Shown here in pieces: positions 9,400 through 34,098 of a DNA stretch of 42,719 bases; positions within the stretch are counted from its first letter, which is position 1; the number at the start of each line of letters is the position of its first letter. Under the pieces are notes generated by a model, which worked only from the letters and a program-made list of their open reading frames with translations, had not been told where the DNA came from and made no database searches. The stretch is from Patescibacteria group bacterium (GTDB taxonomy: Bacteria > Patescibacteriota > Minisyncoccia > Phycocordibacterales > UBA2100), in contig JBBUFE010000001.1 in NCBI GenBank assembly GCA_038056635.1, forward strand, positions 7,686 through 50,404, written 5' to 3'. A program made the translations under genes and the position numbers.

Positions 9400-10178
9400 C
9401 AAGACTTGGACAGCATTTTTTGAAAACGCCGTGGGCGGCGCGCCCACTCGCGCGCGCGGCATACATTACTGGCGACGACACTGTTCTTGAAATCGGGCCT
9501 GGAAAAGGAGCTCTCACGCGCGAGCTTCTCTCGGTGTCAAAAAAAGTAGTCGCGATTGAAAAAGACGAGGCGCTTGTTGAAAAGTTGCGCGAAAAGTTCG
9601 CGCAAGAAATCTCCACTAACGCACTTACGGTCATTTCCGGCGATATACGCGATATCACGCCAAAAAAACTTGGGCTCGAATCTGGAAAATACATCCTGGC
9701 GGCTAATATTCCGTATTACATAACCGGAGAAATCGTCCGGCAGTTCTTGACAGCCGAAGAACAACCCCGCGCAATGGCGCTTCTTGTTCAAAAAGAGGTA
9801 GCGCAGAGAATCATCAGCAAAAAGGAAAGTCTGTTATCGCTCTCAGTTAAGGTTTATGGCTCCCCGAAAATTGTTGCCAAAGTTCCTCGAGGAAATTTCA
9901 CACCAGCGCCAAATGTTGATTCGGCAATTTTGCTCATAGACAACATTTCTCGGCAATTTTTCGCAGATTTAGATGAAAACTTATTTTTCAAAGTCATTCA
10001 CGCAGGGTTCATGTCCAAAAGAAAATATCTCCTTAACAACCTTGCCACTGTCTTCAAAAAAGAATCGGCCGCTAGCGCATTCGCAATTTGTGAAATAAGT
10101 CTGAAAGCACGCGCCGAGGATGTTCCTCTTGATGCTTGGCGAGCAATCGCCAAGCAGCTTCTAGCTTCTAGTAGCTAG
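9360..10178 (+). CDS. rsmA: 16S rRNA (adenine1518/1519-N6)-dimethyltransferase
   Basis: LGQHFL is followed by the SAM-binding motif EIGPGKGALT and NIPYYIT. The first 14 codons (MRQNRRNAKIGVGA) are encoded by MITE copy A. The C-terminal LLASSS and the stop are encoded by a CTAG heptamer array. Confidence 0.85.
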   Translation: MRQNRRNAKIGVGARLGQHFLKTPWAARPLARAAYITGDDTVLEIGPGKGALTRELLSVSKKVVAIEKDEALVEKLREKFAQEISTNALTVISGDIRDITPKKLGLESGKYILAANIPYYITGEIVRQFLTAEEQPRAMALLVQKEVAQRIISKKESLLSLSVKVYGSPKIVAKVPRGNFTPAPNVDSAILLIDNISRQFFADLDENLFFKVIHAGFMSKRKYLLNNLATVFKKESAASAFAICEISLKARAEDVPLDAWRAIAKQLLASSS

Positions 10179-10240
10179 CTTCTAGGAATATTGTCTTTTG
10201 CTTTTCTAGCAGCTAGAAGCTAGTCCCTAGCAACTATCTT
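10157..10240. repeat. CTAG-heptamer hairpin element (empty form)
   Basis: The left arm is GCTTCTA GCTTCTA GTAGCTA GCTTCTA (10157-10184), followed by a 21-nt spacer/loop. The right arm is CTAGCAG CTAGAAG CTAGTCC CTAGCAA CTATCTT (10206-10240). It covers the stop codons of both convergent genes. Confidence 0.8.
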
Positions 10241-10560
10241 GACGACCCCATCATTGAAATTGAAATACCGGGCAAAACATAAATCGGCACTGGCAGAACG
10301 AGGCAAAAATAGGGGACGCTCGTCAGCCCCAAAAGCCACTGACCACCACTCGTTGGCGGACCGTTCTGATATGTCCGCGTCGCGGGTGTCCAGACATACA
10401 AACCCGCGTTCGGAGGGCCAATCGCAGCCAAAATAGCTACGTTAAAACAAGGAAACACAAAACTGGTCTGCCCGCCGAAAGGTGCGGCATATGCGGAGTT
10501 TGGCACGCTGAAAAGAAGGGCGCCACACAGAACAACGACCGATACGAGACGGTTGGACAT
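10234..10560 (-). CDS. small secreted protein (signal peptide), unknown function
   Basis: The ATG at 10560 gives MSNRLVSVVVLCGALLFSVPNSAYA followed by a mature ~83-aa Gly/Pro-rich hydrophobic protein. It is divergent from the T4SS-like block. Confidence 0.5.
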   Translation of the reverse strand: MSNRLVSVVVLCGALLFSVPNSAYAAPFGGQTSFVFPCFNVAILAAIGPPNAGLYVWTPATRTYQNGPPTSGGQWLLGLTSVPYFCLVLPVPIYVLPGISISMMGSSR

Positions 10561-10725
10561 GTTTTGTATTCTAACACCACATATTGCTGGCACCGGGCAT
10601 GTCAACAATAGTCAACGGCCGTATTGAATCGTTGATATGTTTTGCCCCGCATATGCAATACCTTTCCATGGCTTGTTTAAGAATCATTCTATCTTGTATT
10701 GGAACAGCGCTACGCGCTGTTGCCA

Positions 10726-10760
10726 CTATACGCTATACGCTATACGCTATACGCTATGCC
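10726..10760 (+). repeat. (CTATACG)x4 plus degenerate fifth unit containing the start codon
   Basis: CTATACG occurs at 10726, 10733, 10740 and 10747. CTATGCC at 10754-10760 contains the ATG at 10756. Confidence 0.85.
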
Positions 10761-11712
10761 ATGGCTTCGCGCATATCCTCGGTCGGCTCTAATCGCTCTC
10801 GCGGTGACTCTCATTGTTATTGGCAGTCTTGTTATCGCAAGAAAATCCCCAATGGAAACAAGCCCCTCATATTCAACCGTCTCTGAAGAAAGCGCTTTTG
10901 TTGAATCACCGTTTCCTTATGATACCGCGCCCATAGCAGAGGAGGGTGTCTTGAAGCTCATTCCGCCATCACTTATGCAGTCAGTAGTAAGCAGTCCTCC
11001 CTTTTCATATTCTTCTCCTTTTATTTCTCGGGAGGCCAAACCTGCTCCCAGCGTCGTTCCATCAAACACATCTTCTGCGGAAGTGAAAAAAACTCCCGAA
11101 ATTACAGACGGCGCGAATTTTTGGAACGCATATTCGCTGACACCTCGCGGACTGATAAGCACTTCAATAGCAATAAAAACCCGCACCCCCGAAGAAAAAG
11201 CTCTTTTTGATTACGGCAACGAGCTCGGCTTATATATAGGAGCATTCGAGGACGCCCATCAAAATACGGTTTCTTCTTTTCAGGATTTCTTTTCGGCTCG
11301 GGGCGCTACGCCTTCTGGAGAATTAGGGGGATTAAAGGCGGGATCGCAACCAAAGCCCGCGCCGCCTCCAGCGGACGGAGGCCTTTCCGCTATTGAAAGA
11401 ATCACATCAACGGCAAGAGATTACTCGCGGCTCGGAGATACTATCGCGAACATGAGTTCTGTTCCAAAAGACGCACAACGTCTCCATCTGACCCTCTCCC
11501 AAGGTTACGGCGAGATTGGCGCGGGTCTTTCCGCAATCGTCCAACCGAATGGCGGCGACCTGGTAAAAGCTGTCCTTGCCTACAATGAATCCGCAGATAA
11601 ATTCATCAAAAATTTTGTGTCTCTTGCAGAATTTTTCTCCGCTCGCGGCATCAAATTCTCTTCGAGCGACCCTGGAAATATTTTTTCTTTCAGCGCAACA
11701 GGCGGTCTATAG
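10756..11712 (+). CDS. membrane-anchored protein, unknown function (paralogue of next gene)
   Basis: The ATG at 10756 gives MPWLRAYPRSALIALAVTLIVIGSLVIA (TM anchor). A Ser/Pro-rich linker and a helical C-terminal domain follow. A canonical terminator follows the gene. Confidence 0.6.
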   Translation: MPWLRAYPRSALIALAVTLIVIGSLVIARKSPMETSPSYSTVSEESAFVESPFPYDTAPIAEEGVLKLIPPSLMQSVVSSPPFSYSSPFISREAKPAPSVVPSNTSSAEVKKTPEITDGANFWNAYSLTPRGLISTSIAIKTRTPEEKALFDYGNELGLYIGAFEDAHQNTVSSFQDFFSARGATPSGELGGLKAGSQPKPAPPPADGGLSAIERITSTARDYSRLGDTIANMSSVPKDAQRLHLTLSQGYGEIGAGLSAIVQPNGGDLVKAVLAYNESADKFIKNFVSLAEFFSARGIKFSSSDPGNIFSFSATGGL

Positions 11713-11768
11713 ACTCTGCACGCCAAGTCAAGGGGAGTCCTTGATTTTGTTTTGGCTGAATTTTCTCC

Positions 11769-11805
11769 GCGTCGAAACTGTGGTCAGTTTCGACGCGATT
11801 TTTGC
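11769..11805 (+). terminator. Rho-independent terminator
   Basis: GCGTCGAAACT (11769-11779) pairs with AGTTTCGACGC (11786-11796) around a 6-nt loop. GATTTTTGCTTCTT follows. Confidence 0.8.
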
Positions 11806-11866
11806 TTCTTGGAATACCAAGAAAAAAATCGCCTATTGCCTAAGTGCCCATTGTCTGCTTATTGGA

Positions 11867-11875
11867 TGTTATAAT
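11867..11875 (+). promoter_or_regulatory. extended -10 promoter element (TGtTATAAT)
   Basis: TG at 11867-11868 and TATAAT at 11870-11875 lie 6 nt before the in-frame GTG at 11882. This is consistent with a leaderless transcript. Confidence 0.4.
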
Positions 11876-11881
11876 TTTCGT

Positions 11882-12709
11882 GTGGAAAACCGACGCATCT
11901 ACTCGAGCGGGCTTTCTAGCATTGCCACCACGGCTGTACTTTCCGTTGCGGTTCTCTTATCGGCTCTCGTCTGGCAAGTAACCACGACCATAGACACAAA
12001 AAAGGCATCCTTGCGCGTAGTTTCCGATTATTCTAAGGAGGGGCGGGCTACACCAACGCAAGAAAGTACTTCGGACCAATTGCAAGCAGGGACCGTTGCG
12101 AGCGCAACAAACACAAAACCATATGACTCGAATGACTTGTCGCAAATAGGCGATAACGCCTTCGGAAAACTCATCGGAACGTACGTTGCATTAAAACAAT
12201 CTGGCGCATACACAGCATCTGCAGGCGAGCGCGTCGCACAAGACATTGCTACATCTTTAACCGCGCCCGTAGCGTATGCGCCGATTTTAGAAAGCGACAT
12301 TAAGGCTGACTCTGACACGTCTTATAAACGGATGCTTCAGTACCGGAGTGATATGCGCACTGCATACGAACCGCTTCTGCAAAACAAAGAGCCGGAGTTT
12401 GCTGTTTTCGCCCGATATGTTGAGACTGGCGACAAAAGCAATCTGGCCACGCTATCTCTGTATGCGGAAAGGTACAAGAAGACGGCTACAAACGCGAAAA
12501 ATGCCACCGTGCCGAAAGACACTATTTCCTACCATGTGAGAATTGCGAACTCACTTCTACAGTTCGCGGCGGTACTTGAACAAATGGTCAAGTACGCAGA
12601 TAACTCGATGGCATCTCTCGCGCTTTTGCGTACATACAACAGTGCAGAGCTTGAGGTGCTTACCTCTTTCAACTCCATCGCGACATTTCAGAGAAACAAA
12701 ACGCCATGA
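11882..12709 (+). CDS. membrane-anchored protein, unknown function
   Basis: GTG at 11882 is the first ATG/GTG/TTG start codon after the terminator. The TM anchor is LSSIATTAVLSVAVLLSALVW. The C-terminal helical domain has a TYNSAE...F motif resembling AYNESAD...F in the preceding protein. The stop overlaps the next start (ATGA). Confidence 0.5.
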   Translation: MENRRIYSSGLSSIATTAVLSVAVLLSALVWQVTTTIDTKKASLRVVSDYSKEGRATPTQESTSDQLQAGTVASATNTKPYDSNDLSQIGDNAFGKLIGTYVALKQSGAYTASAGERVAQDIATSLTAPVAYAPILESDIKADSDTSYKRMLQYRSDMRTAYEPLLQNKEPEFAVFARYVETGDKSNLATLSLYAERYKKTATNAKNATVPKDTISYHVRIANSLLQFAAVLEQMVKYADNSMASLALLRTYNSAELEVLTSFNSIATFQRNKTP

Positions 12710-14451
12710 CAGATAAAAGAACACTCAAAAAAAATATCGCGATATGGATTCTTGCTCTTGGAATTTTCGTTTTGGCGCCGTTTTATGCCTTTGCCGAGCA
12801 CGAGCAACAGTGTGTAACTAGCACAGCAGCGGGAGTTTCGACCGATACTTGTTTCCGCAAGCCCCACATCACTATCGAGCCAGCAGGACCACAAAATGTA
12901 ACGATGGAGTCCACCTTTTCCGAACCAAAAGGTTTCAGCCGGCAAGGTATTTTTGGATGCAGTCAAACCGGTTCTTACTCCATGAGCGTCGGAACACTCG
13001 GGGCAATAGGTGGAGCATTCGTCCCGGTGAACGACGCGGCAGTTACTCTAAACACCGGGTACCTGGTTTTCAAAGAATGCGTCCTGCGCCCGGTAATCAA
13101 TCGCCAGAGTGAAAGCGAGACGGCGAGCATTCTAAAACAGACAACCGAAGGTTTTCTCACTGGACGAAACGGACAGCCATTGTTTCCCGTAGACCTGGAG
13201 AAAGACAAGCTGGAACGCAGTGATGCGGTTGTCGAGCGTGCTCTTGCCACAGGCCGTATTGATGCTGTGAGCCCCGCGTTTCGGGACGACGTAAAACGCG
13301 CAATTCAGCGCGACTACAATGTGAAAACAAGAAACTCTAACGACTCCCTCAAGTGTTCGTATGCTGGCTCTCCGGCAAAACTCACTGCCGTATTACGGGG
13401 CAAACAATTTAATGGATTCCTCGATGTGCTTATGCTGGCCGACCCCAACTGCATTCCTCTTTACGCAGCCAAAAACGCGCAAAATCTGGTAATGCGCGAC
13501 GTTGCCACCGAACAAAACGACATGCTGACTCGGCTCGGATGGAACAGCGGCGTGTACGATGTTGAGAAGGTTAATGCCGACGGCACTAGGCAAGTGCTAA
13601 CTCCGGGATTCTTGCTCGCAGACACGATAAAGCAACAGCTCGGTTCCGGCTTCCGTAAGCAGGAAAGCGCCAACGACATAGACCAAATGGTCGGGAACCT
13701 CTTTTCCAGAATCAGCGTTTCTATTTTTGCAAGTTTCGGGGGACTCCAAGGTCTTGTGCAGAAGAACGCAGGCACTCCGTCATACTTGGACCAGGTTGTG
13801 CTTGATTCATCCGAGGGTCTTCGCGATAGCGCAATCAATGCCGCAATTCAGATTCTTGTCGCCGCAAGACAAGTGGGAGCGCAGTATCTGGAAGCGGAGA
13901 ACGGGACTGCCTCGGTTCTTATACGCGCAATAGCACAACTGCGAGGAGCGGAAAACACGTGCTGGAACATCATCGTTCCCAAAGTGAAATCTTACGCCGA
14001 GGCCGGAGCCTGCGCGAAAAATTCTGACGGAGGTCAAACGTGCTCCGGTTCTTTCGCCTTGAAAATCGCGACCTCAACCTCATTCTCGCAGGGCGTGATT
14101 GACTCGCAAATTGCGCCGCTTGCAACCACGACCGCCCTTAAAATCAATGCCACCTCCCAAGCAGTGGCTGCCGTGGATAAATTGATACTGGATGTAACTA
14201 ATTCCAAAGCGCCCAATGTCCAGAGCACGGCGCTTCAGCAATTAGACGCGCTTGTCGCCGGAAAAGCGCTCCCAAGCCAATACGATTTGAAAGCGGCGGA
14301 ACAGCAACTGCAGGATGTAAATAATTCCGTCTCAACCCTCGTAACGGACACCATAAAAGCGTGGGGAGACAGCCCGGACACGAATATCGGCTGGTGCAAT
14401 GTAAATAATGAGAACGTAATACCGATGTGGGCGAACAAATGGAAGATATGA
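12706..14451 (+). CDS. large secreted protein, unknown function (T4SS-like locus)
   Basis: 581 aa with the signal peptide IAIWILALGIFVLAPFYAFA. There are no further TM helices. Both ends have ATGA start/stop overlaps with the neighbouring genes. Confidence 0.65.
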   Translation: MTDKRTLKKNIAIWILALGIFVLAPFYAFAEHEQQCVTSTAAGVSTDTCFRKPHITIEPAGPQNVTMESTFSEPKGFSRQGIFGCSQTGSYSMSVGTLGAIGGAFVPVNDAAVTLNTGYLVFKECVLRPVINRQSESETASILKQTTEGFLTGRNGQPLFPVDLEKDKLERSDAVVERALATGRIDAVSPAFRDDVKRAIQRDYNVKTRNSNDSLKCSYAGSPAKLTAVLRGKQFNGFLDVLMLADPNCIPLYAAKNAQNLVMRDVATEQNDMLTRLGWNSGVYDVEKVNADGTRQVLTPGFLLADTIKQQLGSGFRKQESANDIDQMVGNLFSRISVSIFASFGGLQGLVQKNAGTPSYLDQVVLDSSEGLRDSAINAAIQILVAARQVGAQYLEAENGTASVLIRAIAQLRGAENTCWNIIVPKVKSYAEAGACAKNSDGGQTCSGSFALKIATSTSFSQGVIDSQIAPLATTTALKINATSQAVAAVDKLILDVTNSKAPNVQSTALQQLDALVAGKALPSQYDLKAAEQQLQDVNNSVSTLVTDTIKAWGDSPDTNIGWCNVNNENVIPMWANKWKI

Positions 14452-16910: not shown

Positions 16911-16911
16911 T

Positions 16912-17568
16912 ATGGCAATCGCTGCAAATGAAGCCGATGTGAACGAACAAGAGCTCGCCAAGCGGCTTGCGGAGCGATTCGTGCAGTTGCCAAAAGTCGT
17001 TCAGAACGCGATTACCTCCGCCGAAATCGAAAAACGGCTGCGCAAACTTGCTGATACGCATAAATTACATCTGGACCAATGGGAACTGCTTGAGAACGAA
17101 GTGCGCCTAACCGTTTACGGCTTCCAACAAACGGAAGATTTGTCTAAAAATATCGAGAATGAAGTCGGAGTCTCCAAGGAAACTGCCGACGCGCTTACAT
17201 CTGATATATCGCAAAATATTTTCGAGCCCATCCGCGAAGAGCTTGAGCGCGAGCTAGAGTCTCCGGACGCAAAAGAGAAAAAGGTTGGCGAGCTTGACGA
17301 GGTCCGCTCGGAAATACTCGGAGATAAGCCGGCAGCCCCTATACGAGATACGAGAGACGAGAGACGAGATACGATTGTCGCTCCCCCCATACCAGATACA
17401 CGATACGCGATACCCGATACTATTCCTGTCCTGCCTTCTACCCCGCCTCCGCCGCCAAGCACCGAAAAATCTATCCGCGCGCCGCTCTCATCTTCGTACA
17501 CATCTCAAGCGCCAAGCCACGAACGCATCGCCACAGAAGGAGACCCGTATCGCGAACCGACGGCTTAG
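16912..17568 (+). CDS. acidic, Pro-rich soluble protein, unknown function
   Basis: 218-aa ORF. Residues encoded by 17341-17424 come from 12 in-phase heptamer units. The stop codon lies in a CTAG array. Confidence 0.45.
   Translation: MAIAANEADVNEQELAKRLAERFVQLPKVVQNAITSAEIEKRLRKLADTHKLHLDQWELLENEVRLTVYGFQQTEDLSKNIENEVGVSKETADALTSDISQNIFEPIREELERELESPDAKEKKVGELDEVRSEILGDKPAAPIRDTRDERRDTIVAPPIPDTRYAIPDTIPVLPSTPPPPPSTEKSIRAPLSSSYTSQAPSHERIATEGDPYREPTA
17341..17424 (+). repeat. 12 in-phase heptamer units inside an ORF
   Basis: The units are ATACGAG ATACGAG AGACGAG AGACGAG ATACGAT TGTCGCT CCCCCCA TACCAGA TACACGA TACGCGA TACCCGA TACTATT. Confidence 0.8.
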
Positions 17569-18055
17569 CTTCTAGCTTCTAGGGACTAGCTTCTAGGTAT
17601 AACCGCGTAACTCATAGCTTCTAGAAAATATGACAGAGATAATCAAGTCGCACAAAGATTTAATAGTTTGGCAAAAGTCCGTACAACTTTCTCTCATAAT
17701 TTACCGCATAACTAGTGATTTCCCTCCGCGAGAAATGTACGCTCTTTCTTCACAAATGCGACGAGCAGCTGTTTCAATTCCGTCCAATATCGCAGAAGGA
17801 AAATCTCGTGGAACAAGAAAAGATTTCGCGCATTTTCTGCACATGTCATATGGTTCCGCTGCTGAACTGGAAACGCAGTTACTAATCGCCAAACAATTGA
17901 ATTTCTGCGAGGATGAGAAATTTAACGAAACGAATTCACTGCTATCCGAAGTGAGCAAGATGTTGCGTGTTATGATAGAGAAACTGGAGACTAGTTAACT
18001 AGCGGCTGCTTTTGTTTTGCCTAGAAGCTAGAAGCTGGTCCCTAGCAGCTAATCC
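17563..18055 (+). mobile_element. inverted-repeat-flanked cassette carrying a four-helix-bundle gene
   Basis: The left arm is GCTTCTA GCTTCTA GGGACTA GCTTCTA (17568-17595). The right arm is CTAGAAG CTAGAAG CTGGTCC CTAGCAG CTAATCC (18021-18055). CTAGGGACTAGCTTCTAG in the left arm pairs at 17 of 18 positions with CTAGAAGCTGGTCCCTAG in the right arm. Confidence 0.45.
17630..17998 (+). CDS. four-helix-bundle protein (23S rRNA intervening-sequence protein / Avd-like family)
   Basis: 122 aa. The pattern DLIVWQKS...L...IY.IT..FP..E.YALSSQMRRAAVSIPSNIAEG...R....F..FL..S.GS..ELETQL is the hallmark of this family. Confidence 0.85.
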   Translation: MTEIIKSHKDLIVWQKSVQLSLIIYRITSDFPPREMYALSSQMRRAAVSIPSNIAEGKSRGTRKDFAHFLHMSYGSAAELETQLLIAKQLNFCEDEKFNETNSLLSEVSKMLRVMIEKLETS

Positions 18056-18057: not shown

Positions 18058-18537
18058 ATGCAATTCCAAGTCCCGCAGTTTATTGAAGTTGAAGATAAGA
18101 TTTTCGGTCCTCTCACCTTCAGACAATTCGTTTATTTGGCGGGAGGGGCAGGGGCATGCTATGTGCTTTGGCGAATTTTCCCGTCCTACATCGCGGCTCC
18201 TCTTATTTTGGGCACTGGCGGACTGGCTGTTGCTCTTGCTTTCTTGCAATACAACGGCAGACCTTTTATAAGCGCCCTTGAGCACGGATTCTACTTCCTA
18301 ATAAAGACCAAGCTCTATCTGTGGAGCAATAAGACTGCGCAAATTAAGAAAGGGGTCCGCGATGAGGAGGCCGAAAACCGCGTCATTAGGAAACCGCTTG
18401 CATATATTCCAAAACTATCAGGCAGCAAACTGCATGAACTCGCATGGAGCTTGGACATCAAGGAACGCATCGCCGCCGGCGTCGCAAGCGAAGACGAGCT
18501 TGGGTCCGACTCGGTGATGCCGATGAGCAGGCAATAG
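18058..18537 (+). CDS. PrgI-family (VirB3-like) T4SS membrane protein
   Basis: MQFQVPQFIEVEDKIFGPLTFRQFVYLAGGAGACYVLW is followed by a second hydrophobic helix, the typical PrgI N-terminal signature. The gene lies just upstream of virB4. Confidence 0.7.
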   Translation: MQFQVPQFIEVEDKIFGPLTFRQFVYLAGGAGACYVLWRIFPSYIAAPLILGTGGLAVALAFLQYNGRPFISALEHGFYFLIKTKLYLWSNKTAQIKKGVRDEEAENRVIRKPLAYIPKLSGSKLHELAWSLDIKERIAAGVASEDELGSDSVMPMSRQ

Positions 18538-18669: not shown

Positions 18670-19341
18670 ATGCCGAATCTTAAAACCAACGCCCCAAGCA
18701 GCAAATCCACGCAGGAATTCGTCCCTGTGCGCGAAGTGCGAGACGGAACTATTGTTTTAAAAGATGGCGGGCTCCGCGCCGTGCTTCTTGCCTCCTCGAT
18801 AAACTTCGCGCTTAAGTCGGAGGACGAGCAGACGGCATTTATTTCCCAGTTTCAGAACTTTCTGAACTCGCTCGATTTTTCAGTGCAAATTTTCGTAGAG
18901 TCCCGCATGCTTGATATTCGTCCCTACGTAGCAACATTGGAAGCGGCATTCAAAGAACAGCTCGACGACTTGATGCGAATTCAGATTCGCGAGTATATAG
19001 AGTTCGTCAGAAGTTTCGCCGAGTCGGCGAACATCATGACTAAAAACTTCTTCGTGGTCGTGCCATACTCTCCGACGGCAATCGGCAGGGTAACCGGGCA
19101 TTCATCAATCTTTCCGTGGGGTCAAAAGAAAGGGGGCGCCTCCGAAGCAGAGAGCCGGTCGTTCGGCGAGCAAGTGTCCCAGCTTGAACAGCGCGTGGCG
19201 ATTGTCCAGCAAGGGCTAGTGCGGACAGGCGTACGCACGGTGCAGCTGGGAACCGAGGAAGCGATAGAGCTTTTGTATAAATTGTTCAACCCCGGCGAGG
19301 AGGGAAAGCCGATGCCGTTGGAAACAGCTTCTAGAGGCTAG
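18670..19341 (+). CDS. T4SS-associated protein resembling the N-terminal domain of Gram-positive VirB4/TraE-type ATPases
   Basis: 223 aa. The pattern VPVREVRDGTIVLKDGGLRAVLLASSINFALKSEDEQTAFISQFQNFLNSLDFSVQIFV is recalled from memory of VirB4-like N-termini and was not searched. The last 4 codons and the stop lie in a CTAG array. Confidence 0.5.
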   Translation: MPNLKTNAPSSKSTQEFVPVREVRDGTIVLKDGGLRAVLLASSINFALKSEDEQTAFISQFQNFLNSLDFSVQIFVESRMLDIRPYVATLEAAFKEQLDDLMRIQIREYIEFVRSFAESANIMTKNFFVVVPYSPTAIGRVTGHSSIFPWGQKKGGASEAESRSFGEQVSQLEQRVAIVQQGLVRTGVRTVQLGTEEAIELLYKLFNPGEEGKPMPLETASRG

Positions 19342-19417
19342 CTTCTAGCTGCTAGAAAATACAAATACCATGCACCACATTACAAACCTAGAACCTAGAA
19401 GCTAGTCCCTAGAAGCT
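19327..19417. repeat. CTAG-heptamer hairpin element (empty form) between the two VirB4-related ORFs
   Basis: The left arm is GCTTCTA GAGGCTA GCTTCTA GCTGCTA (19327-19354), followed by a 33-nt loop. The right arm is CTAGAAC CTAGAAG CTAGTCC CTAGAAG CT (19388-19417). It runs straight into the ATG at 19418. Confidence 0.8.
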
Positions 19418-21358
19418 ATGAGTTTACTCGACATATTCAAAAAGAAAGACACCCGCAGTTCAACCGCGGCCGTTCTTCCTATTTTGCCAGAGGAAATTTA
19501 TGAGGCGGGGATACTTGACCTTCAAGATGTCATCGCTCCGCACGCGCTTAAAATAAGCTCGCGCGAACTCGATTTGGGGGAGAAAATTGCGCGCACATTT
19601 TTCGTCATATCATATCCGCGCTTTCTCACAACCGGCTGGTTCGCTCCAATAATTAACATCGACAAAGTCCTTGATATTTCAATATTCATCCATCCGATGG
19701 ATACAAATGAAATGCTGCGCAAGTTTCAGAAAAAAGTCGCCGAGGTGCAGAGCCAGATATCAACGCGCGAACAAAAAGGCATGGTGCGCGACCCGATGCT
19801 CGACACCGCCTACTCCGACCTTGAGCGCCTGCGCGATTCGCTCCAGCAAGCGCAGGAGCGCGTCTTTGAGGTAGGGTTGTATCTCACGATTTACGGAAAC
19901 ACGCGCGAGGAGATTGATAAAATTGAATCCGAAGTGCGCTCAATCCTTGAATCTCGCCTCGTATATATTCGCCCGGCTCTTTTCCAGCAAGAGCAAGGTT
20001 TTCGCAGCGTCCTACCCCTTGCAAACGATGAATTGAATGTGCACACCAAATTGAATTCCGCTCCGCTTTCATCAATTTTCCCTTTTATATCATTCGACCT
20101 CACTTCCGACCGAGGCATTCTTTACGGCATCAATAGGCATAATTCCTCACTCGTACTCTTCGACCGCTTCTCTCTGGAAAATTACAACTCGGTTACATTT
20201 GCCAAGTCCGGCGCGGGGAAAAGCTATGGGACGAAGCTGGAAATCTTGCGCTCTCTTATGTTCGATGTGGAAGTTATCGTCATCGACCCGGAGCGCGAAT
20301 ATGAATATCTTGCAGAAACTGTCGGCGGCCGGTATTTCAACATCTCGCTTTCTTCGGAACACCACATTAATCCTTTCGACCTCGCCATCCCGCGCGAAGA
20401 CGAAAATCCGGCCGACGTATTGCGAAGCAACATCATTACTCTAGTCGGCTTGTTTAGAATAATGTTGGGCGGGCTTACGCCCGAGGAAGACGCCGTAATT
20501 GATAGAGCAATCACTGAAACATACGCCCTCAAGGACATCACGGCGGAAGCAAACTTCGCATTAATTGAGCCACCCCTTTTGTCCGACTTCGAACTTGTTC
20601 TTTCTGGAATGGAGGGGAGCGATTCGCTAGTTGCCCGGCTTTCCAAATACACAAAAGGCACATGGGCCGGCTTTATGAACCGGCCGACGAACGTGGACAT
20701 GAATAAGAAGTTGGTTGTCTTTTCTGTGCGCGACATGGAAGACGACTTGAAGCCGGTTGCAATGTACATCATCACGCATCACATCTGGAACACGGTGCGC
20801 AAAGAACTTCGCAAGCGCCTCCTCATCATCGACGAGGCGTGGTGGATGATGCGCTCTGCAGACACGGCATCGTTCCTATTCTCAATCGCTAAACGCGGAA
20901 GAAAATATTTCCTCGGAATCTCCACCATCACGCAAGACGTTTCAGACTTCTTGAACTCGCCGTATGGAATACCGATGATTACAAACTCTTCTATTCAATT
21001 GCTTTTGCGGCAATCTCCGACATCTGTTGACCTTGTGCAACAAACTTTCAAGTTGTCAGACGAAGAGAAATATCTGCTTCTTGAATCAGACGTGGGGGAG
21101 GGAATTTTCTTCGCGGGGTTGAAACACGTCGCGATTAAAATAATCGCTTCTTATACGGAAGACCAGATAATCACCTCCGACCCATCCCAAATTCTCGCTA
21201 TCCGCAAAGCGAAGAAGGACCTCGCGGATTCGCACGATGCTGATAATGCGGAGGAACAATTACTGCGAGTTATTGCGCCGGACAAGCCAGCAGTCAAACC
21301 GGCAATGCCAACGCCTGCCGCGTTAACAGAGGACGCGGCCTCCGGTACGGCAAAATAA
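19418..21358 (+). CDS. virB4: VirB4-family type IV secretion ATPase
   Basis: 646 aa with Walker A FAKSGAGKSYG and Walker B RLLIIDEAWWMM. An upstream FFVISYPRFLTTGWFAPI region is typical of the CagE/TrbE/VirB4 domain. Confidence 0.85.
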   Translation: MSLLDIFKKKDTRSSTAAVLPILPEEIYEAGILDLQDVIAPHALKISSRELDLGEKIARTFFVISYPRFLTTGWFAPIINIDKVLDISIFIHPMDTNEMLRKFQKKVAEVQSQISTREQKGMVRDPMLDTAYSDLERLRDSLQQAQERVFEVGLYLTIYGNTREEIDKIESEVRSILESRLVYIRPALFQQEQGFRSVLPLANDELNVHTKLNSAPLSSIFPFISFDLTSDRGILYGINRHNSSLVLFDRFSLENYNSVTFAKSGAGKSYGTKLEILRSLMFDVEVIVIDPEREYEYLAETVGGRYFNISLSSEHHINPFDLAIPREDENPADVLRSNIITLVGLFRIMLGGLTPEEDAVIDRAITETYALKDITAEANFALIEPPLLSDFELVLSGMEGSDSLVARLSKYTKGTWAGFMNRPTNVDMNKKLVVFSVRDMEDDLKPVAMYIITHHIWNTVRKELRKRLLIIDEAWWMMRSADTASFLFSIAKRGRKYFLGISTITQDVSDFLNSPYGIPMITNSSIQLLLRQSPTSVDLVQQTFKLSDEEKYLLLESDVGEGIFFAGLKHVAIKIIASYTEDQIITSDPSQILAIRKAKKDLADSHDADNAEEQLLRVIAPDKPAVKPAMPTPAALTEDAASGTAK

Positions 21359-26742: not shown

Positions 26743-26748
26743 ATAGAA

Positions 26749-26878
26749 GTACCGTGTATGGAGTATAGCGTATGGCGGACAAGAGAGGAAGTATCGCGTA
26801 TGATGTATGGCATATGGCGGGCATGCGATTTTGAATTTTGTATTTCTCCCTCCATACACGATACGCCATACTCCATAT
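26749..26878. repeat. heptamer arrays (GTATNNN x4, x4, then inverted NNNATAC x4) upstream of rpmH and dnaA
   Basis: The first block is GTACCGT GTATGGA GTATAGC GTATGGC (26749-26776). The second is GTATCGC GTATGAT GTATGGC ATATGGC (26791-26818), in the same 7-nt phase. The inverted block is TCCATAC ACGATAC GCCATAC TCCATAT (26851-26878). Confidence 0.75.
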
Positions 26879-26884
26879 AATTCT

Positions 26885-26904: not shown

Positions 26905-26958
26905 CCTTGTAAACACACGGGAAGGAACCCCTCCTCTTTCCATAAAAGAAGCGGCGCG

Positions 26959-26964
26959 TATAAT
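26959..26964 (+). promoter_or_regulatory. -10 hexamer TATAAT upstream of dnaA
   Basis: A perfect TATAAT lies 9 nt before the dnaA ATG at 26974. This implies a very short or absent leader. Confidence 0.4.
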
Positions 26965-26973
26965 GACCGTCCT

Positions 26974-28338: not shown

Positions 28339-28554
28339 CCTGTGGATGGCTTGTTAATCATCATCTAATAACCCAAGACTTATTACTTAAATAAAATTAT
28401 AAAATATATACTCACCTTTCTTTAAAATAAATATCAACACAAACCCAACAATCCATAATAATAAAATAAACCTCTAAAACATCACTCAAATAAGCTTATA
28501 CACACAATGCACATAACTAATAGTAATAATAGTATTTAAATATATATTATATAT
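28339..28554. other. candidate oriC / DNA-unwinding region in the dnaA-dnaN spacer
   Basis: This 216-bp spacer is far more AT-rich than the rest of the window. DnaA-box-like TGTGGATGG lies at 28341-28349 and TTATACACA at 28496-28504. The classic dnaA-dnaN position supports the call. Confidence 0.55.
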
Positions 28555-29655: not shown

Positions 29656-29673
29656 CGAAGACAAATCGGCACA

Positions 29674-29715
29674 GGTCTACTGGCCGCAAGCCACAGGCTA
29701 CGAGCTACTGGCTCT
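29674..29715. repeat. single heptamer array (NNNCTAC-type)
   Basis: GGTCTAC TGGCCGC AAGCCAC AGGCTAC GAGCTAC TGGCTCT lies between the convergent dnaN and PBP stops. The units resemble the right arm at 2781-2794. Confidence 0.55.
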
Positions 29716-29719
29716 TTAG

Positions 29720-32179
29720 TTACTGAATCGTGAAGTTAATTGTCTTTTCCTCATTTCCGGACGCGCTTTCCGCAACCGCGCGCAGTGTTACCGGCCCGCG
29801 TGTCGGGGGAGTTATAGAAATTGAAAATGCCGGCGGTGTTCCGACTCCTATGCGGATATTATTTAAATAATAAGAGACGCGAGACACGTTTTCTGGACGA
29901 GGCGCAAAAACTGAAATTACGAGCGGTACAAAAGATGAGACAGTTGTTCCAGACTGCGGCGAAGTAATTGTGAAAACTTTTCCTGCACCCGCCGCTCCAG
30001 AGCTTGGAGAGGGGCGCGGGGCGGATTGCAAAAGTTTTTCTGGGTTGCCCTGCGCCCAAATCTGCACAGGATATTCCCAGCGGGCAAACTGCGGATCGTT
30101 ATTTGGGTTGGCTGGTCGGCCGCCGCGAGGACTTCCTTTCTCCGTCCAATAGAGAATGTCGTGAATTCCCTCCGACGGGTTAGAGTTCCAACTTCCTCGC
30201 AAAACCGGCGGAAGAGAGTCCAGTTCTGTTTCAGGCGCTTGAGGAGGGAAGGCGCCCGAAGAATATTTTTCGATTGCGTATGCAGTAACCTCGTGCCACA
30301 TCGGCGCCACAATGAAAGCGGCAATCTTTTTTACCATCGGGCTGTTGTCATTATTTCCTGCCCACGCGCCGACAGCAATGCCTGGCGTATACCCTATGAC
30401 CCAAGCATCGCGATAATCGTTTGTGGTCCCTGTTTTATCGGCTACAGGGGTGCCCGGGAAGTAAAGCGGGGAATCGGCGCCGAATTCAGGAGCTCGGGCC
30501 ACGTTATCAGAAAGAATATCATTTATTTGCCTGGCAATCTGTTGGTCCATGACGCGCAAACTCTCCAGTTCAAAGACCTCTAACGTGTTTCCCGCGCCGT
30601 CCTCGACGCGCAAAACGCTCGCGGGGGGATTCCGTATTCCGTCATTCGCAAATACCCCGTATGCTCCTGTCATTTCCAAGAGATTCGCTTCACCCCCGCC
30701 CAAAACAAGCGTGAGCCCGTATTGGTCCTTGTCGTCGAGCGTAGTTATTCCCATATCGCTCGCAGTTTTTAAGGAATCTGCTACTCCGGCGAGATAAAGG
30801 ATTTTCACGGAGGGGATGTTCACAGATTGCGCAAGGGCGTTTCGCAATGTGATTGGGCCATGGAATTTCAGGTCGAAGTTTTCGGGAGAATAGCACGGCG
30901 GTTCATCGGAAAAATCTTCCGGCTTGCAGTAACTGGAGAATTGGGTTTTTAGGTCAAACACAACCGCGTCTGGCGTGTATCCTTTTTGGAGGGCGGTTGC
31001 ATAAACGAACGGCTTGAATGTGGAGCCAGGCTGGCGGTTTGCAAGAGTTACGTTCACTTTCCCGTCTATTTTGGAGTCGAAATATCCGCGCGAGCCGACC
31101 ATTGCCAGAATCTGCCCGGATTTGGGGTCTATTGCCACGAGCCCCGCGTTTGAGGCGTTGAAGTTCTTTTCATTTGAAAGCGCCGCCTTGGTCAGCGTCT
31201 CCTCCGCTTTCTTTTGTAAATCGTAATCAAGGGTAGTCGTTACTTGAAGGCCCCCTCTCTCGACTGCATCTGCTCCATACTTTTCTTCGAGGTACTCGCG
31301 GACATAAAACACGAAGTGCGGGGCCTTGATGCCCGCCGCCGCCTCATCTTTAAACTCAACTTTTTCCTGCAGTGCGTTTTCATATTCAATATCGGCGATA
31401 AATCCGTTCTCTTTCATCTTTTGCAGAACAAGATTTTTTCTCCTCTCTAATTCATCGCGGTGATTTCCGTAAGGAGAATAGCGCGTGGGCGCCTGCGGAA
31501 GGGCGGCCATGTACGCGGCTTGCGCGAGAGAAACATCCTTAGCGCTTATGCCGAAAAAGTATTGGCTCGCTTCCTCAACCCCGTATATTGTCCCGCCGTA
31601 GGAGGTCTCGTTTAAGTATGTGGCGAGAATCTGGTCCTTCGAGTAATGCCGCTCCAACTTTATTGCCAGAGCGATCTCTTTTATCTTGCGAATTATTGTT
31701 TTGTCTCGAGTGAGGAGCGCATTTTTAACCACCTGCTGGGTGATGGTCGAACCGCCTTGAACAAATTTCATGGAAAGAATATCGACCGCCATCGCGCGGA
31801 GGAGTGACAATGGCCGGAAGCCGTAGTGCTGGTAAAATTCCGCATCTTCGACAGCGACAGCGGCGTTTCTCAAGTTGGGAGAAATTTCATCGAGAGGGAC
31901 TGCCGTTCGGCGCATTATTCCGTGCACGTCGAAAAGGAGCACGTTTCCGGTTCGGTCATAAATCTTTGTCGATTCCGCAACTCTGCGGTTCTGGAAATTA
32001 TCAATCGAAGGGATTGTAAGCACGACCGCCCATGCGGCTATAATTCCTCCGCCAAACATCGCGATGACTGCGATGGTTGCGAGCGCCGCCTTTATGTACG
32101 GTAACGCATGTTTCCATCCGCGGGGTTTGTTTGCGGCGCTGTATGGCGGATATGGAGGCGGCATAGTAGATTGGCGCAT
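29720..32179 (-). CDS. class A penicillin-binding protein (transglycosylase/transpeptidase)
   Basis: The GT51 motifs are EDAEFYQHYG, GGSTITQQVVKN and RKIKEIALAIKLE. The transpeptidase motifs are STFKPF, SVN and KTGTT. I placed the start at the ATG at 32179. The TTG at 32206 on the track is in frame with MITE-derived sequence. Confidence 0.9.
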   Translation of the reverse strand: MRQSTMPPPYPPYSAANKPRGWKHALPYIKAALATIAVIAMFGGGIIAAWAVVLTIPSIDNFQNRRVAESTKIYDRTGNVLLFDVHGIMRRTAVPLDEISPNLRNAAVAVEDAEFYQHYGFRPLSLLRAMAVDILSMKFVQGGSTITQQVVKNALLTRDKTIIRKIKEIALAIKLERHYSKDQILATYLNETSYGGTIYGVEEASQYFFGISAKDVSLAQAAYMAALPQAPTRYSPYGNHRDELERRKNLVLQKMKENGFIADIEYENALQEKVEFKDEAAAGIKAPHFVFYVREYLEEKYGADAVERGGLQVTTTLDYDLQKKAEETLTKAALSNEKNFNASNAGLVAIDPKSGQILAMVGSRGYFDSKIDGKVNVTLANRQPGSTFKPFVYATALQKGYTPDAVVFDLKTQFSSYCKPEDFSDEPPCYSPENFDLKFHGPITLRNALAQSVNIPSVKILYLAGVADSLKTASDMGITTLDDKDQYGLTLVLGGGEANLLEMTGAYGVFANDGIRNPPASVLRVEDGAGNTLEVFELESLRVMDQQIARQINDILSDNVARAPEFGADSPLYFPGTPVADKTGTTNDYRDAWVIGYTPGIAVGAWAGNNDNSPMVKKIAAFIVAPMWHEVTAYAIEKYSSGAFPPQAPETELDSLPPVLRGSWNSNPSEGIHDILYWTEKGSPRGGRPANPNNDPQFARWEYPVQIWAQGNPEKLLQSAPRPSPSSGAAGAGKVFTITSPQSGTTVSSFVPLVISVFAPRPENVSRVSYYLNNIRIGVGTPPAFSISITPPTRGPVTLRAVAESASGNEEKTINFTIQ

Positions 32180-32217
32180 GAAGTTAATCGACTGATTGTA
32201 CCGCAAGTAACCGGTTG

Positions 32218-32353
32218 CCCCGACACCAACTTTGGCATTGTGTCTTCAACTGTGTCATCGTACGAAGGCGAGTCGTCGGCGAACGAGAGGACGTATTTGT
32301 GGTTTCATGCGAAGAAACTTCCACGCGCAATAATGCCAAAGTTGGTGCATGGG
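32218..32353. mobile_element. MITE-like element, copy C (136 bp)
   Basis: The TIRs are CCCCGACACCAACTTTGGCATTGTGTC and CGCAATAATGCCAAAGTTGGTGCATGGG. The flanks GGTTG and CTTGG are only a degenerate direct repeat. Confidence 0.55.
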
Positions 32354-32419
32354 CTTGGCAAAAACGCCCAAATATGGCATCTTCTAGCAATTAACCTCTC
32401 GTCCATCACAAAGCTCCCT

Positions 32420-33445
32420 ATGAAAATCAAACTTAGGTACGGAGAGAATCCTCATCAGAAAGCATCCGCATCTCCCAAAACCACAAGAGATGTTTTGGCA
32501 ATTGCGCGTTTCAAGCGAGAGGACGGCAGTCCGTTTGTGGGAGCGGACGCAAGCTGGATATCAATAACCGACCTAGGGCGCCTTATTCAAGTTGTTGAGA
32601 GATTTGCCGCGGCGTATCGCAAAAATATCTCCCCCTCGCTTCCGAATGTCGCGGTTATCGTTAAGCACGGCAGTCCCTGCGGCGCGGCTTTTGGCAAGAA
32701 CGGAGAGAGCGTTGCGCGTGATGCGTGGCTCGGAGACCCGCACGCGGCCTTTGGAGGATTTCTTATTGTTACGTTTCCGTTCACCGCGAAAATTGTTGAG
32801 GCCCTAGCGTATGCAAACGGCGGCAGGACGCCTTTCCTGAGCGGTGTTGCGGCGCCGTCTTTTGAAAAAGGCGTTGCAGAAGGAATTGGCGCGAAGAGCA
32901 AGGGAACCCACTTTATTTCAAATAAGGCGCTGGCAGAGATTCCGGCTCAAATTTCGAAACAGAACGAGATAAGCTCTGCGCGCGACTACATTCTCGAACA
33001 AACATCGACCCAATTTGTCCCGGTATTCTCCAGAATGGAGTATCACGGCCCTGTGCTTTCGGCGCATGTAAGTAAAGAAATTTTTGCAGACCTCTCGCTT
33101 GCCTACGCCGTGTGTTCAGCGAGTACGAGCAATACAGTCTCGCTAGTGAAAGACGGAGCGCTGATAGGAAACGCGGTTGGCCAGCAAAAGCGCGTCGGGA
33201 GCGCGAAGCTTGCGCTGCGGCTGGCGGAAGAAAGCAGTCATGGCACGAAAGGCGCTGTCGCAGTTTCAGACAGCTATTTCCCGTTTCCAGACGGTCTTGA
33301 GGCGTTGGCAAAGGGAGGGGTGCGAGCAATTTTTGCAACTTCCGGCTCTGTGCGCGACAGAGAAGTGTTCGCGCGCGCGGAAGAGCTTCATGTGGGAATG
33401 TTTACCGTTTCCGACAAGGTAGGAAGAATGTTCGCTGGACACTGA
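32420..33445 (+). CDS. purH: AICAR transformylase domain protein (PurH C-terminal domain only)
   Basis: The ATG at 32420 gives MKIKLRYGENPHQKA, the AICARFT signature. At 341 aa it has no MGS-like IMP cyclohydrolase domain. The upstream part of the 445-aa track ORF crosses the MITE and the PBP start. Confidence 0.7.
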   Translation: MKIKLRYGENPHQKASASPKTTRDVLAIARFKREDGSPFVGADASWISITDLGRLIQVVERFAAAYRKNISPSLPNVAVIVKHGSPCGAAFGKNGESVARDAWLGDPHAAFGGFLIVTFPFTAKIVEALAYANGGRTPFLSGVAAPSFEKGVAEGIGAKSKGTHFISNKALAEIPAQISKQNEISSARDYILEQTSTQFVPVFSRMEYHGPVLSAHVSKEIFADLSLAYAVCSASTSNTVSLVKDGALIGNAVGQQKRVGSAKLALRLAEESSHGTKGAVAVSDSYFPFPDGLEALAKGGVRAIFATSGSVRDREVFARAEELHVGMFTVSDKVGRMFAGH

Positions 33446-33480
33446 CCCTCAAATCTGTCTTTCTCACCTCCGTGTTCTCC

Positions 33481-33508
33481 ATGCTGGTGTTTTGCAAAAC
33501 ACTAGCAT
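33481..33508. terminator. hairpin between convergent purH-like and ruvC genes
   Basis: ATGCTGGTGTTT-TGCA-AAACACTAGCAT forms a 12-bp stem with one G-U pair. Its centre is TTTTGCAAAA, as at 4378-4407. Confidence 0.45.
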
Positions 33509-33528
33509 AGAACAGGTGCAGGGTAATG

Positions 33529-34014
33529 CTAATGCGCGGATGGACGAACTCTCGATAGGTGGGTCAAACCGACGGCTATGGCGTCATACTCGTCGTCGTA
33601 TTTTATTTCCTTTTCGATTTTCACGAGCGCGTGTAGCATTTTGGCGATTTGTTGCTTATCTGCTCTGCCGTAGCCTCCAGCGGCACTCTTAATTTCCCCT
33701 GGAGTATATTCAAAAACGGGGATGCCGAGGTTTGCCGCGGCATTGATGAGCGCGCCCCGCACTTCCGCGACGCGCATCGCGGTTTTTTGATTCGTGCTGA
33801 AGTAGAGTTTCTCCATCGCGAGCGCGTCTGGCATATATTTCTTTGCAAGACGAGAGCATTCACCCGCAACAGTTCCAAGCCGCGCGGTAAAATCAGCGTC
33901 CTTAGATGTCTCTATGCAATCGGAATAAAGAAGAACCTCTTTCGTTCCTTCCGTGCGCTCCAACACGGCCACGCCGCATCTTCCGTATCCGGGGTCAATT
34001 GCCAAAACTCTCAT
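33529..34014 (-). CDS. ruvC: Holliday junction resolvase RuvC
   Basis: MRVLAIDPGYGRCGVAVLE is the RuvC N-terminal catalytic motif. The 161-aa length fits. Confidence 0.9.
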   Translation of the reverse strand: MRVLAIDPGYGRCGVAVLERTEGTKEVLLYSDCIETSKDADFTARLGTVAGECSRLAKKYMPDALAMEKLYFSTNQKTAMRVAEVRGALINAAANLGIPVFEYTPGEIKSAAGGYGRADKQQIAKMLHALVKIEKEIKYDDEYDAIAVGLTHLSRVRPSAH

Positions 34015-34015
34015 A

Positions 34016-34098
34016 GCTTCTAGCTTCTAGCTTCTAGGGGCTAGAAACAATATCTGTATTGTACTAGAAGCTAGTAGCTAGTCCCTAGCAGCTATTCA
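34016..34098. repeat. CTAG-heptamer hairpin element (empty form)
   Basis: The left arm is GCTTCTA x3 plus GGGGCTA (34016-34043), followed by a 20-nt loop. The right arm is CTAGAAG CTAGTAG CTAGTCC CTAGCAG CTATTCA (34064-34098). It spans exactly from the ruvC start to the yebC stop. Confidence 0.8.

Follow-up and report, generated by a model that had tools for sequence, protein, structure and literature searches.

The stretch of DNA analysed here (the window) comprises 42,719 nucleotides of contig JBBUFE010000001.1 (positions 7,686 to 50,404 of the forward strand), from genome assembly GCA_038056635.1 of a Patescibacteria group bacterium. It holds four loci, which we call A to D, at which inverted repeats are built of tandem heptamers, many containing the tetranucleotide CTAG. 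At three of them the arms form empty hairpins; at the fourth they enclose a complete gene for a protein of the PF05635 family, for which we use the name intervening-sequence protein (IVP).

Four CTAG-heptamer loci in the window

Locus A is an empty hairpin (left arm 10156-10185, 20-nt loop 10186-10205, right arm 10206-10236; no strand assigned) that separates the convergent rsmA gene (plus strand) and a 124-aa open reading frame (ORF; minus strand), both of whose stop codons lie within its arms (rsmA TAG at 10176-10178; CTA of the convergent ORF at 10234-10236). Locus B is the filled element. Its 5′ arm (17562-17596, plus strand) reads GGCTTAG CTTCTAG CTTCTAG GGACTAG CTTCTAG, the first unit containing the TAG stop (17566-17568) of the upstream gene orf218; a solitary unit, AGCTTCTAG, stands at 17616-17624 (plus strand), 5 nt before the ATG of the enclosed gene; and the 3′ arm (18021-18055, plus strand), CTAGAAG CTAGAAG CTGGTCC CTAGCAG CTAATCC, ends just before the ATG of a PrgI/VirB3-like gene at 18058. 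Locus C (left arm 19326-19355, 32-nt loop, right arm 19388-19417; plus strand) is an empty hairpin between orf223 (TraC-like), whose TAG stop (19339-19341) is in the arm, and the gene for a VirB4-like ATPase, whose ATG at 19418 is flush with the arm. Locus D, also empty (left arm 34015-34044, 19-nt loop, right arm 34064-34094; no strand assigned), lies between two minus-strand genes, yebC (stop, seen as TCA, 34096-34098) and ruvC (start, seen as CAT, 34012-34014), and its orientation with respect to transcription is the reverse of that of B and C.

The 5′ arms of all four are runs of (A)GCTTCTA-type heptamers including one variant unit each, and the 3′ arms keep a single unit order, CTAGAAG / CTAG(A/T)AG / CT(A/G)GTCC / CTAG(C/A)A(G/A) / CTA. 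An identical CTAGAAGCTATG adjoins both the VirB4-like ATG and the minus-strand ATG of ruvC, the outward arm end CTAGAAGCT being followed directly by ATG at both C and D. Upstream stops fall in the first or second 5′-arm unit at B and C, and in both arms for the convergent pair at A. Inverted-repeat searching gave arms of 30-42 nt that are 74-92% complementary, and all four loci are predicted to fold arm-to-arm, most cleanly at C (predicted stem -38 kcal/mol, z=-6.3). Since 7 cannot be divided by 3, successive units fall in different reading frames; a TAG carried by each of them closes three frames, and CTAG units close all six, so that an upstream ORF ends at or inside the 5′ arm. An Rfam scan of the window gave no match at the gathering score and no rRNA, and all five cassettes and hairpins tested have protein-coding genes, not rRNA, as neighbours.

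Across the window CTAGNNGCTAG occurs 19 times against 0.11 expected, a count reached by none of 100 shuffles, and 32 of the 91 CTAG sites fall in the ~330 nt of loci A-D. Tandem arrays of period 7 number 12 in the window, with none of periods 5, 6 or 8-11 and none in shuffles; over 554 kb of loci there are 88 of period 7 versus at most 8 for other periods. Chance or low complexity is ruled out by these shuffles. An assembly artefact is likewise ruled out, since three independent assemblies of the same population (ENA ERZ1300416, ENA ERZ1292621 'Hain_H52' and Logan ERR3858127; L156-L158 in our numbering of sampled loci) match the window at 99.7-99.8% identity over 6.4 kb and carry the arms without any difference. 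The alignment has 33 variable columns (SNPs and two short indels) in those 6.4 kb, all outside the elements, which are therefore real and stable at strain level. Separately, 15 of the 33 columns cluster in the last ~90 nt of orf218 (17467-17553), directly upstream of element B, the arms and the IVP gene being invariant.

A first-pass annotation of this DNA had reported these loci, and direct reading bears out the positions it gave, the shared right-arm unit order, the concentration of CTAG in the arms and the complete 369-nt gene that they enclose. It had headed them as four empty hairpins; three are empty and one is filled, and its idea of a single family in empty and filled forms stands. Its proposal that the elements donate stop codons (to rsmA, orf218 and orf223) and set the context of start codons is confirmed by the layout above, as is that of donated C-terminal residues by a comparison given below. 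It had named two ways in which the family might dissolve, chance low complexity and absence of the arms from the underlying reads; the shuffles and assemblies speak against both.

The enclosed gene and the PF05635 family

The gene in element B, IVP1 (17630-17998, plus strand), encodes a four-helix-bundle protein of 122 aa that matches PF05635 ('23S rRNA-intervening sequence protein'; E=4e-40) and TIGR02436 ('four helix bundle protein'; E=8e-38) and is homologous to the crystallised Xanthomonas campestris pentamer XCC0516 (2GSC; E=7e-23). It is weakly similar to the Avd protein of diversity-generating retroelements (DGRs) through NF033474 and phrog_3206 (E 1e-4 to 1e-6); its NF033474 score of 22 bits compares with an Avd equivalog cut-off of 80, and IVP1 is not scored as an Avd. 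A Pfam scan of 10 window proteins found no reverse transcriptase (RT), HRDC or MSL family, and the other ORFs, read by eye, include no evident RT, template and variable repeats not having been searched for; PADLOC returned no defence-system match for the proteins scanned.

To our knowledge PF05635/TIGR02436 is a very large family without known function, and we know of no catalytic fold or motif in it. Its biology so far consists of a few members residing in 23S rRNA intervening sequences (IVSs) and of the resemblance to DGR Avd. The sampled IVPs are basic (median pI 9.2), and in an alignment of 66 of them a largely polar cluster is invariant (E35, Q42, R45, S49, N53, E56, G57, R60, S76, E79 and T82 in IVP1 numbering), within the motif Q..RR.aVSIPSNIAEG..R ... 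GS..EleTQ, a conservation that is partly circular because the motif was part-used for retrieval. The cluster suggests that the proteins have a defined site for binding or catalysis.

The CTAG family in other genomes

Searching GTDB species representatives, among whose matches the window's own genome does not figure, with the 17-base arm motif CTAGNAGCTAGTCCCTAG returned 75 loci, mostly from the candidate phyla radiation (CPR: Kaiserbacteria, Paceibacterota, and records labelled Saccharibacteria, Levyibacteriota and Nomurabacteria), the closest to the window being a Kaiserbacteria metagenome-assembled genome at ~80% nucleotide identity. By arrangement, the 82 motif matches, window included, are 34 tight hairpins and 15 wide pairs, with 32 more that lack a clear partner and one at a contig edge, and one unit order is maintained over the 75 loci. 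CTAG-armed IVP genes number nine among these loci; besides the window, such arms surround orthologous IVP genes in at least six CPR loci (L010, L012 twice, L019, L023, L053 and L066). In L010, L019, L023, L053 and L066 the gene occupies the window's own site, between orf218 and the PrgI/VirB3-like gene, and its product is 67-77% identical in amino acids to IVP1, about as the neighbour genes are. Hairpin D is conserved at the orthologous site in L072, and empty hairpins of the same family are found at orthologous spacers and at others. Covariation of cognate versus non-cognate arms within the CTAG family gave 18.0 vs 17.4 (p=0.21), a comparison without power because all the arms are too alike.

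Arrays of CTAGNNN units matching the 17-nt motif were also seen outside the CPR, in Vibrio (L061, L070), Dialister (L058, L068), an Acidobacteriaceae genome (L015) and Bacteroides (L033). They are mostly solo direct arrays, for instance after accC in Vibrio; L033 has a 35/39-complementary pair, 163 nt apart, without an IVP ORF.

Comparison of orthologous spacers indicates how the elements come and go. The spacer between orf223 and virB4, which holds hairpin C in the window, has a CTAG hairpin also in L005, L053, L019, L010 and L012. The L036 junction has no element and reads ...PMPIEK-TAA-t-ATG; since this ortholog ends in PMPIEK, the residues TASRG of the window's protein derive from the arm. 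The same spacer carries a hairpin of ACAGTTx / CTGTAAA units in L075 and one of CTACCxx-like units in L023, and in L056 and L071 it holds a different PF05635 gene (E=4e-14) between AAATCCG / CGGATTT heptamers, a gene identified by Pfam, our iterative hidden Markov model built from CPR IVPs being too narrow for so divergent a member. Between dksA and comM the window has a GTAG-type hairpin, L069, L043 and L048 have CTAG-type hairpins, and L016 has an unrelated repeat. As unit families vary in this way at orthologous spacers, the property conserved there is a heptamer-periodic hairpin or an IVP cassette, and no particular sequence.

At the orthologue of the IVP1 site itself (window 17630-17998), only the last ~28 codons of the IVP gene remain in L056, L071 and L075, where a GIY-YIG gene (~95 aa; PF01541, E=2e-17) replaces it within intact CTAG arms (L056:1794-2329; L071:6327-7043; L075:4206-4809). 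The GIY-YIG gene carries short flanking repeats of its own (cgctacgctcgcaa...) and has the look of a second selfish element, one that targets IVP genes or takes their place.

Near-identical copies are also present. Two IVP cassettes of L012 are 99.6% identical over 495 nt with unrelated flanks, two empty hairpins of L075 are 98% identical over 100 nt, and the duplicated blocks run from the upstream stop codon (TGA..., AG-TAA...) to the downstream ATG. These comparisons show that the cassettes duplicate, and that they are gained, lost and replaced at stop-to-start spacers within operons, co-oriented with their neighbours.

The exact stop-to-start placement would also be expected if the hairpins were regulatory structures of the host (operon-internal processing or stability signals, devices for translational coupling, or bidirectional 3′ ends) and the IVP an incidental cargo or cofactor, and this would suit the better conservation of arms than of loops and the presence of hairpins C and D and of the site-B IVP in the same spacers of several species whose flanking proteins are 60-90% identical. 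We nevertheless consider it unlikely: the L036 junction looks functional without any element, two orthologous spacers bear unrelated unit families or different IVP genes according to species, near-identical copies sit at unrelated sites, and in L056, L071 and L075 the IVP interior has been exchanged while the arms persist. The lack of strain-level polymorphism in the assemblies compared, and a probably high expression of the type IV secretion system-like operon near dnaA, do favour a host structure, whereas the 3′ ends of the hairpins do not resemble terminators: a terminator scan scored none of the heptamer hairpins as intrinsic (Rho-independent), no T-tail being present, and the sequences 3′ of the right arms, read directly (CAACTATCTTGA, GCTATGAG and CTATTCACGC), contain no T-run, so that a U-tract tail is found in no hairpin.

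Heptamer arms flank PF05635 genes generally

Metagenomes were queried by protein pattern only, taken from an alignment of six IVPs, the arms playing no part in the retrieval; this gave 80 homolog loci at 43-60% identity. Both 110-nt flanks were available for 68 homologs, and at a threshold score of at least 12 an inverted repeat flanks 47 of these, compared with 0 of 68 shuffled and 12 of 313 ordinary ORFs (of at least 200 aa); the median score is 13.5 for IVP genes and 7 for the control. Period-7 arrays stand upstream of 30 and downstream of 29 of the homologs (~44%), period-8 arrays of 9 and 11, and arrays of periods 5, 6 and 9 of 0-1. The arms have 3-6 units (mode 4), the range in the sample being 3-15 units per arm, and their unit sequences are highly diverse (TAGGGAT, GTGACGA, TAGTGGC, AGGATTCA and others). 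In the 5′-arm sense no trinucleotide is commoner than TAG, which is present in 47% of units vs 10% with CTA (TAG/CTA polarity of arms 37:8), and the 5′ arms are G/T-rich (C 12%), the 3′ arms C/A-rich (G 10%). A stop codon in every unit was rejected as a universal rule, only ~72% of 5′-arm units having one vs ~36-40% expected, and is a tendency instead.

The proportion of homolog pairs whose arms share an 11-mer rises with protein identity, from ~2% of pairs below 50% identity to 26% at 60-70% and 88% at 70-85%; arm sharing thus tracks protein identity, and gene and arms are inherited as one unit. The operonic placement seen in the window also recurs: in 48 of 58 cassettes a same-strand ORF begins no more than 60 nt past the 3′ arm (median ~11 nt), and in 43 of 58 a same-strand upstream ORF stops between -25 and +27 nt from the start of the 5′ arm, the codon being TAG in 25 of the 43. 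Not one of the 80 sampled homolog loci falls within an rRNA gene. Named genomes with a heptamer-armed IVP are Nostoc punctiforme (AGGAGTC units), Picosynechococcus, Anabaena sp. 90, Gemmatirosa and Azospirillum. Two of the cassettes are inside CRISPR-Cas operons, between cas10/cmr2 and cmr3 on a plasmid of Picosynechococcus PCC 7003 (L164) and between cas6 and cas4 on pANA02 of Anabaena sp. 90 (L159), a possible reason for the appearance of the family in surveys of CRISPR neighbourhoods.

Other heptamer arrays and repeats in the window

A second IVP cassette lies at 39619-40060 (plus strand), with a 5′ arm of ATGAAT/ATAGAAT units at 39619-39651, IVP2 at 39655-40032 and a 3′ arm at 40034-40060. 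IVP2 (125 aa) matches PF05635 at E=2e-31 and is 37% identical to IVP1, and its arms are made of heptamers other than the CTAG type (ATAGAAT-like); here too the predicted fold brings the arms together around the gene. The upstream neighbour is tsaE (stop at 39620-39622) and the downstream neighbour polA (ATG at 40067); IVP1 and IVP2 are both on the strand of their neighbour genes, and the three short hairpins of loci A, C and D contain no ORF. Arrays without a gene also occur with other unit types. An empty hairpin of xxAGTAG / CTACGGG units (2709-2805, plus strand) occupies the spacer from a dksA-like stop (2706-2708) to the comM ATG (2813); inverted GTATGGx / CCATACx arrays (26756-26877, no strand assigned) lie in the rnpA/rpmH-dnaA spacer; and at the polA 3′ end a hairpin (42493-42572, plus strand) of five AGTATCT and five ATACCAA units, with a 4-nt loop, has the last polA codons and the TAG stop (42506-42508) within its 5′ arm.

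Direct heptamer arrays were noticed inside called ORFs as well: GATACGA/GATACxC units in orf218 (17337-17422), and 4.6 copies of CTATACG (10720-10763) at the start of the ORF at 10699-11712. They translate to peptides of seven-residue periodicity (…DTRDERRDT…, …LYAIRYTLYA…), and are either elements absorbed into coding sequence or else mis-called ORF starts.

Another reading takes the heptamer arrays for ordinary microsatellites made by polymerase slippage, their palindromy and association with the gene being incidental. Heptamers are indeed reported to be over-represented among bacterial simple-sequence repeats, with slippage as the explanation (cited in PMC4692102), copy number varies (2-3 units among Coxiella strains and 3-15 per arm in our sample), and solo direct arrays exist, including those in Vibrio, Dialister and Acidobacteria outside the CPR and those within coding sequence just described. 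Slippage yields no mirrored arms, though, and in element B even the variant units are mirrored (GGACTAG / CTGGTCC); nor does it account for a unit order that is constant across 75 loci, for inverted repeats at 69% of IVP genes vs 4% of others, or for the TAG/CTA polarity of the arms. We regard it as a very remote explanation. DNA uptake sequences and clusters of restriction sites were also dropped as candidates, unit sequences differing between hairpins of one genome and between close species.

The window has further repeats that are not heptameric. A second dispersed inverted-repeat family (GCCCCGACACCAACTTTGGCAT... / ...ATGCCAAAGTTGGTG...) is found at 32217-32354 and 9278-9884, and also at L016:6160-6370, which is the dksA|comM spacer where other species have heptamer hairpins. 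Perfect or near-perfect palindromes lie at 904-963, 4377-4408, 37393-37428 and 33478-33511; among the palindromes are one after the ORF at 32-895 with 23-nt arms of 100% complementarity, a perfect one of 32 nt after comM (TCATTCTAACATTTTGCAAAATGTTAGAATGA) and one upstream of pilB with 17-nt arms (CGTACTTATAATATCCG), and two have a common TTTTGCAAAA core. These may be operators or terminators. The tetranucleotide GATC is strongly avoided in the window (18 observed vs 127 expected from trinucleotides) and ACGT is also low (54 vs 99), which suggests that GATC is a target of restriction pressure or of a methylation system.

Discussion

One close known parallel to the cassettes is the IVS of 23S rRNA, in Leptospira, Coxiella burnetii and Brucella, which has a gene of the same PF05635 family inside the element, terminal inverted repeats giving a stem of ~28-35 bp, and co-orientation with the host transcript. 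In Coxiella the IVS measures 428 nt, carries an S23p ORF and has a terminal stem of 28 bp; its GACAGAT heptamers stand in tandem, 2-3 of them depending on the strain, and RNase III cuts at the start of the first repeat (PMC4990558). Those heptamers occupy the stretch from the foot of the stem to the ATG, and the window cassettes likewise have tandem heptamers in the stem and 5′ region; short IVS forms without an ORF, comparable to the empty hairpins here, occur in other bacteria. Unlike the rRNA IVSs, the window elements lie between protein-coding genes and not in rRNA helices 9, 25 or 45, their arms supply stop codons and adjoin start codons, and excision by RNase III would be an extrapolation.

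A second parallel is with repetitive extragenic palindromic (REP) sequences, their paired form (REPINs) and the associated RAYT transposases. There too short extragenic palindromes are dispersed through a genome, one or few genes stand between inverted copies of the same repeat, and copies without an ORF are far more numerous than the gene; IVP1 stands between the same CTAG arms as form the three hairpins, and the same is found at six other loci. The CTAG family differs in that its protein is a four-helix-bundle pentamer and not an IS200/IS605-type HUH tyrosine transposase, in that its arms are tandem 7-mers and not a single palindrome of 20-40 nt, and in lacking the GTAG/CGTC terminal tags of REPs. 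The empty forms also resemble MITEs (miniature transposable elements with inverted repeats) in being small (80-95 bp), multicopy and intergenic, with terminal inverted repeats and a relationship to a longer gene-bearing form, and they differ from MITEs in having no target-site duplication, no transposase in the longer form and arms that are internally repetitive.

Our reading, to which we give a probability of about 0.72, is that the four CTAG loci are copies of an IVS-type duplicative intergenic cassette family that includes ORF-less derivatives. The complete form is a PF05635 gene between terminal inverted repeats of ~30-35 bp, each of 4-5 tandem heptamers, and the three hairpins are ORF-less derivatives consisting of the arms and a short loop. 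CTAG is one variant of the unit, travelling with this gene lineage; other lineages travel with other 7-mers and sometimes 8-mers. The class as a whole, IVS elements outside rRNA together with MITE/REPIN-like derivatives, is widespread, and as far as we have found it has no earlier description: a full-text literature search turned up no statement of a general bracketing of PF05635 genes by inverted heptamer or octamer arrays, nor of ORF-less copies in operon spacers.

Several results count against a duplicating, IVS-type cassette. No transposase or recombinase domain was found with the cassettes, only PF05635/TIGR02436 being found inside them (Pfam, NCBIfam), and no target-site duplication or flanking direct repeat was seen at the near-identical copies of L012 and L075; gene conversion could be the means of duplication. 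At the strict threshold an inverted repeat was undetectable in 21 of the 68 homologs. Polymorphism of empty and filled sites among relatives, which the first-pass annotation had proposed as a check, is present between species, but between strains, where it was looked for in the three population assemblies, it was not found. Several sites are conserved across species whose neighbour proteins are only 60-90% identical, so that many copies are long-standing residents that could serve the host. In 67 stems flanking IVP genes the mismatches comprise 71 G.U and 100 A.C on the gene strand; with no G.U excess there is no wobble signature, and selection for a helix at the RNA level is not demonstrated. 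Finally, the S23p protein of Coxiella is apparently not made (PMC4990558).

The mismatch count would be expected if constraint on pairing or identity acted on DNA, the arms being the terminal inverted repeats of a true transposon that is moved, along with its MITE-like derivatives, by an external transposase or recombinase or by the IVP itself, as RAYTs move REPINs. A gene between inverted copies of a dispersed palindrome is the very observation by which RAYTs were first identified, near-identical duplicates are present, and the IVPs have an invariant polar cluster (E35, Q42, R45, S49, N53, E56, R60, S76 and E79). A transposon of this kind is, all the same, improbable in our judgement, given that PF05635, besides having no known catalytic fold or motif, matches no transposase family, that neither target-site duplication nor strain polymorphism was seen, and that the homolog Avd is an RNA-binding accessory protein and not an enzyme.

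Under the cassette reading that we prefer, the arms would pair into a long stem in the polycistronic transcript, as in the classical 23S rRNA IVS, and by the same analogy this stem may be a substrate for RNase III. Alternatively, a ribosome terminating in the 5′ arm might melt the stem and uncover the ATG at the base of the 3′ arm, coupling translation of the downstream gene. Avd, a basic pentamer, binds RNA stem-loops that flank the template repeat of DGRs (bioRxiv 10.1101/2023.10.23.563531), and it shares with IVPs a homologous fold and a pentameric basic barrel; by analogy, the IVP pentamer would bind the arms. Avd genes differ in not being described as bracketed by heptamer arrays.

Heptanucleotide repeats have a literature of their own, and the families described in Xanthomonas (GGGAATC), Nostoc (GGGGA(T/C)T), cyanobacteria (the short tandemly repeated repetitive sequences, STRR), Geobacter metallireducens (tandem hepta-/octanucleotide pairs) and Beggiatoa (TAACTGA) resemble the arrays reported here. 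They are intergenic runs of about four units of 7 nt (or 8 nt), with several families per genome, often in convergent inverted pairs (~70 in X. campestris, at least 24 in Geobacter), keeping their position between related species while varying in length. Of the 186 GGGAATC arrays in X. campestris, ~70 stand as inverted pairs (PMC4692102), and array #15, listed without comment, overlaps the start of XCC0516, the crystallised PF05635 protein (PMC4692102 supplement). Families of four to five tandem hepta- or octanucleotides in G. metallireducens were taken to be putative sites for unidentified global regulators, and classes 1 and 3 were drawn as inverted pairs (PMC2700814). The papers on these families read the repeats as formers of G-quadruplexes or as sites of an unidentified regulator, and make no connection with PF05635 genes.

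We suggest, as a possibility that we ourselves think doubtful, that tandem heptamer or octamer arrays have PF05635 proteins as their sequence-specific partners, each IVP lineage recognising its own arms and the scattered ORF-less copies of them. Each subunit of the pentamer might then bind a single unit of the repeat, often one with TAG at its core, much as TRAP binds GAG repeats or Avd its stem-loops. If this were true, the arrays and their proteins would form a genome-wide post-transcriptional network, or else a system of maintenance and mobilisation like that of REPINs and RAYTs. It would explain the ORF of the rRNA IVS and the excess of heptamers long noted in bacteria (cyanobacterial STRR, Xanthomonas GGGAATC and the Geobacter 'global regulator sites'), and also why genes for a 'four helix bundle protein' are so abundant in CPR, cyanobacteria and Bacteroidota.

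Our results also bear on the annotation of CPR and cyanobacterial genomes, as the elements supply C-termini, stops and starts at many gene junctions and heptamer arrays can be mis-called as coding sequence. Prior literature held isolated pieces only, namely the Coxiella heptamers and a Xanthomonas repeat table in which XCC0516 is listed. Inverted runs of 7-mers or 8-mers normally flank a PF05635 gene, which stands in line between the genes of an operon, has arms that co-diverge with it and leaves ORF-less hairpins in stop-to-start spacers, and this indicates that PF05635 genes and the heptamer repeats of bacteria, an old unexplained observation, belong together.

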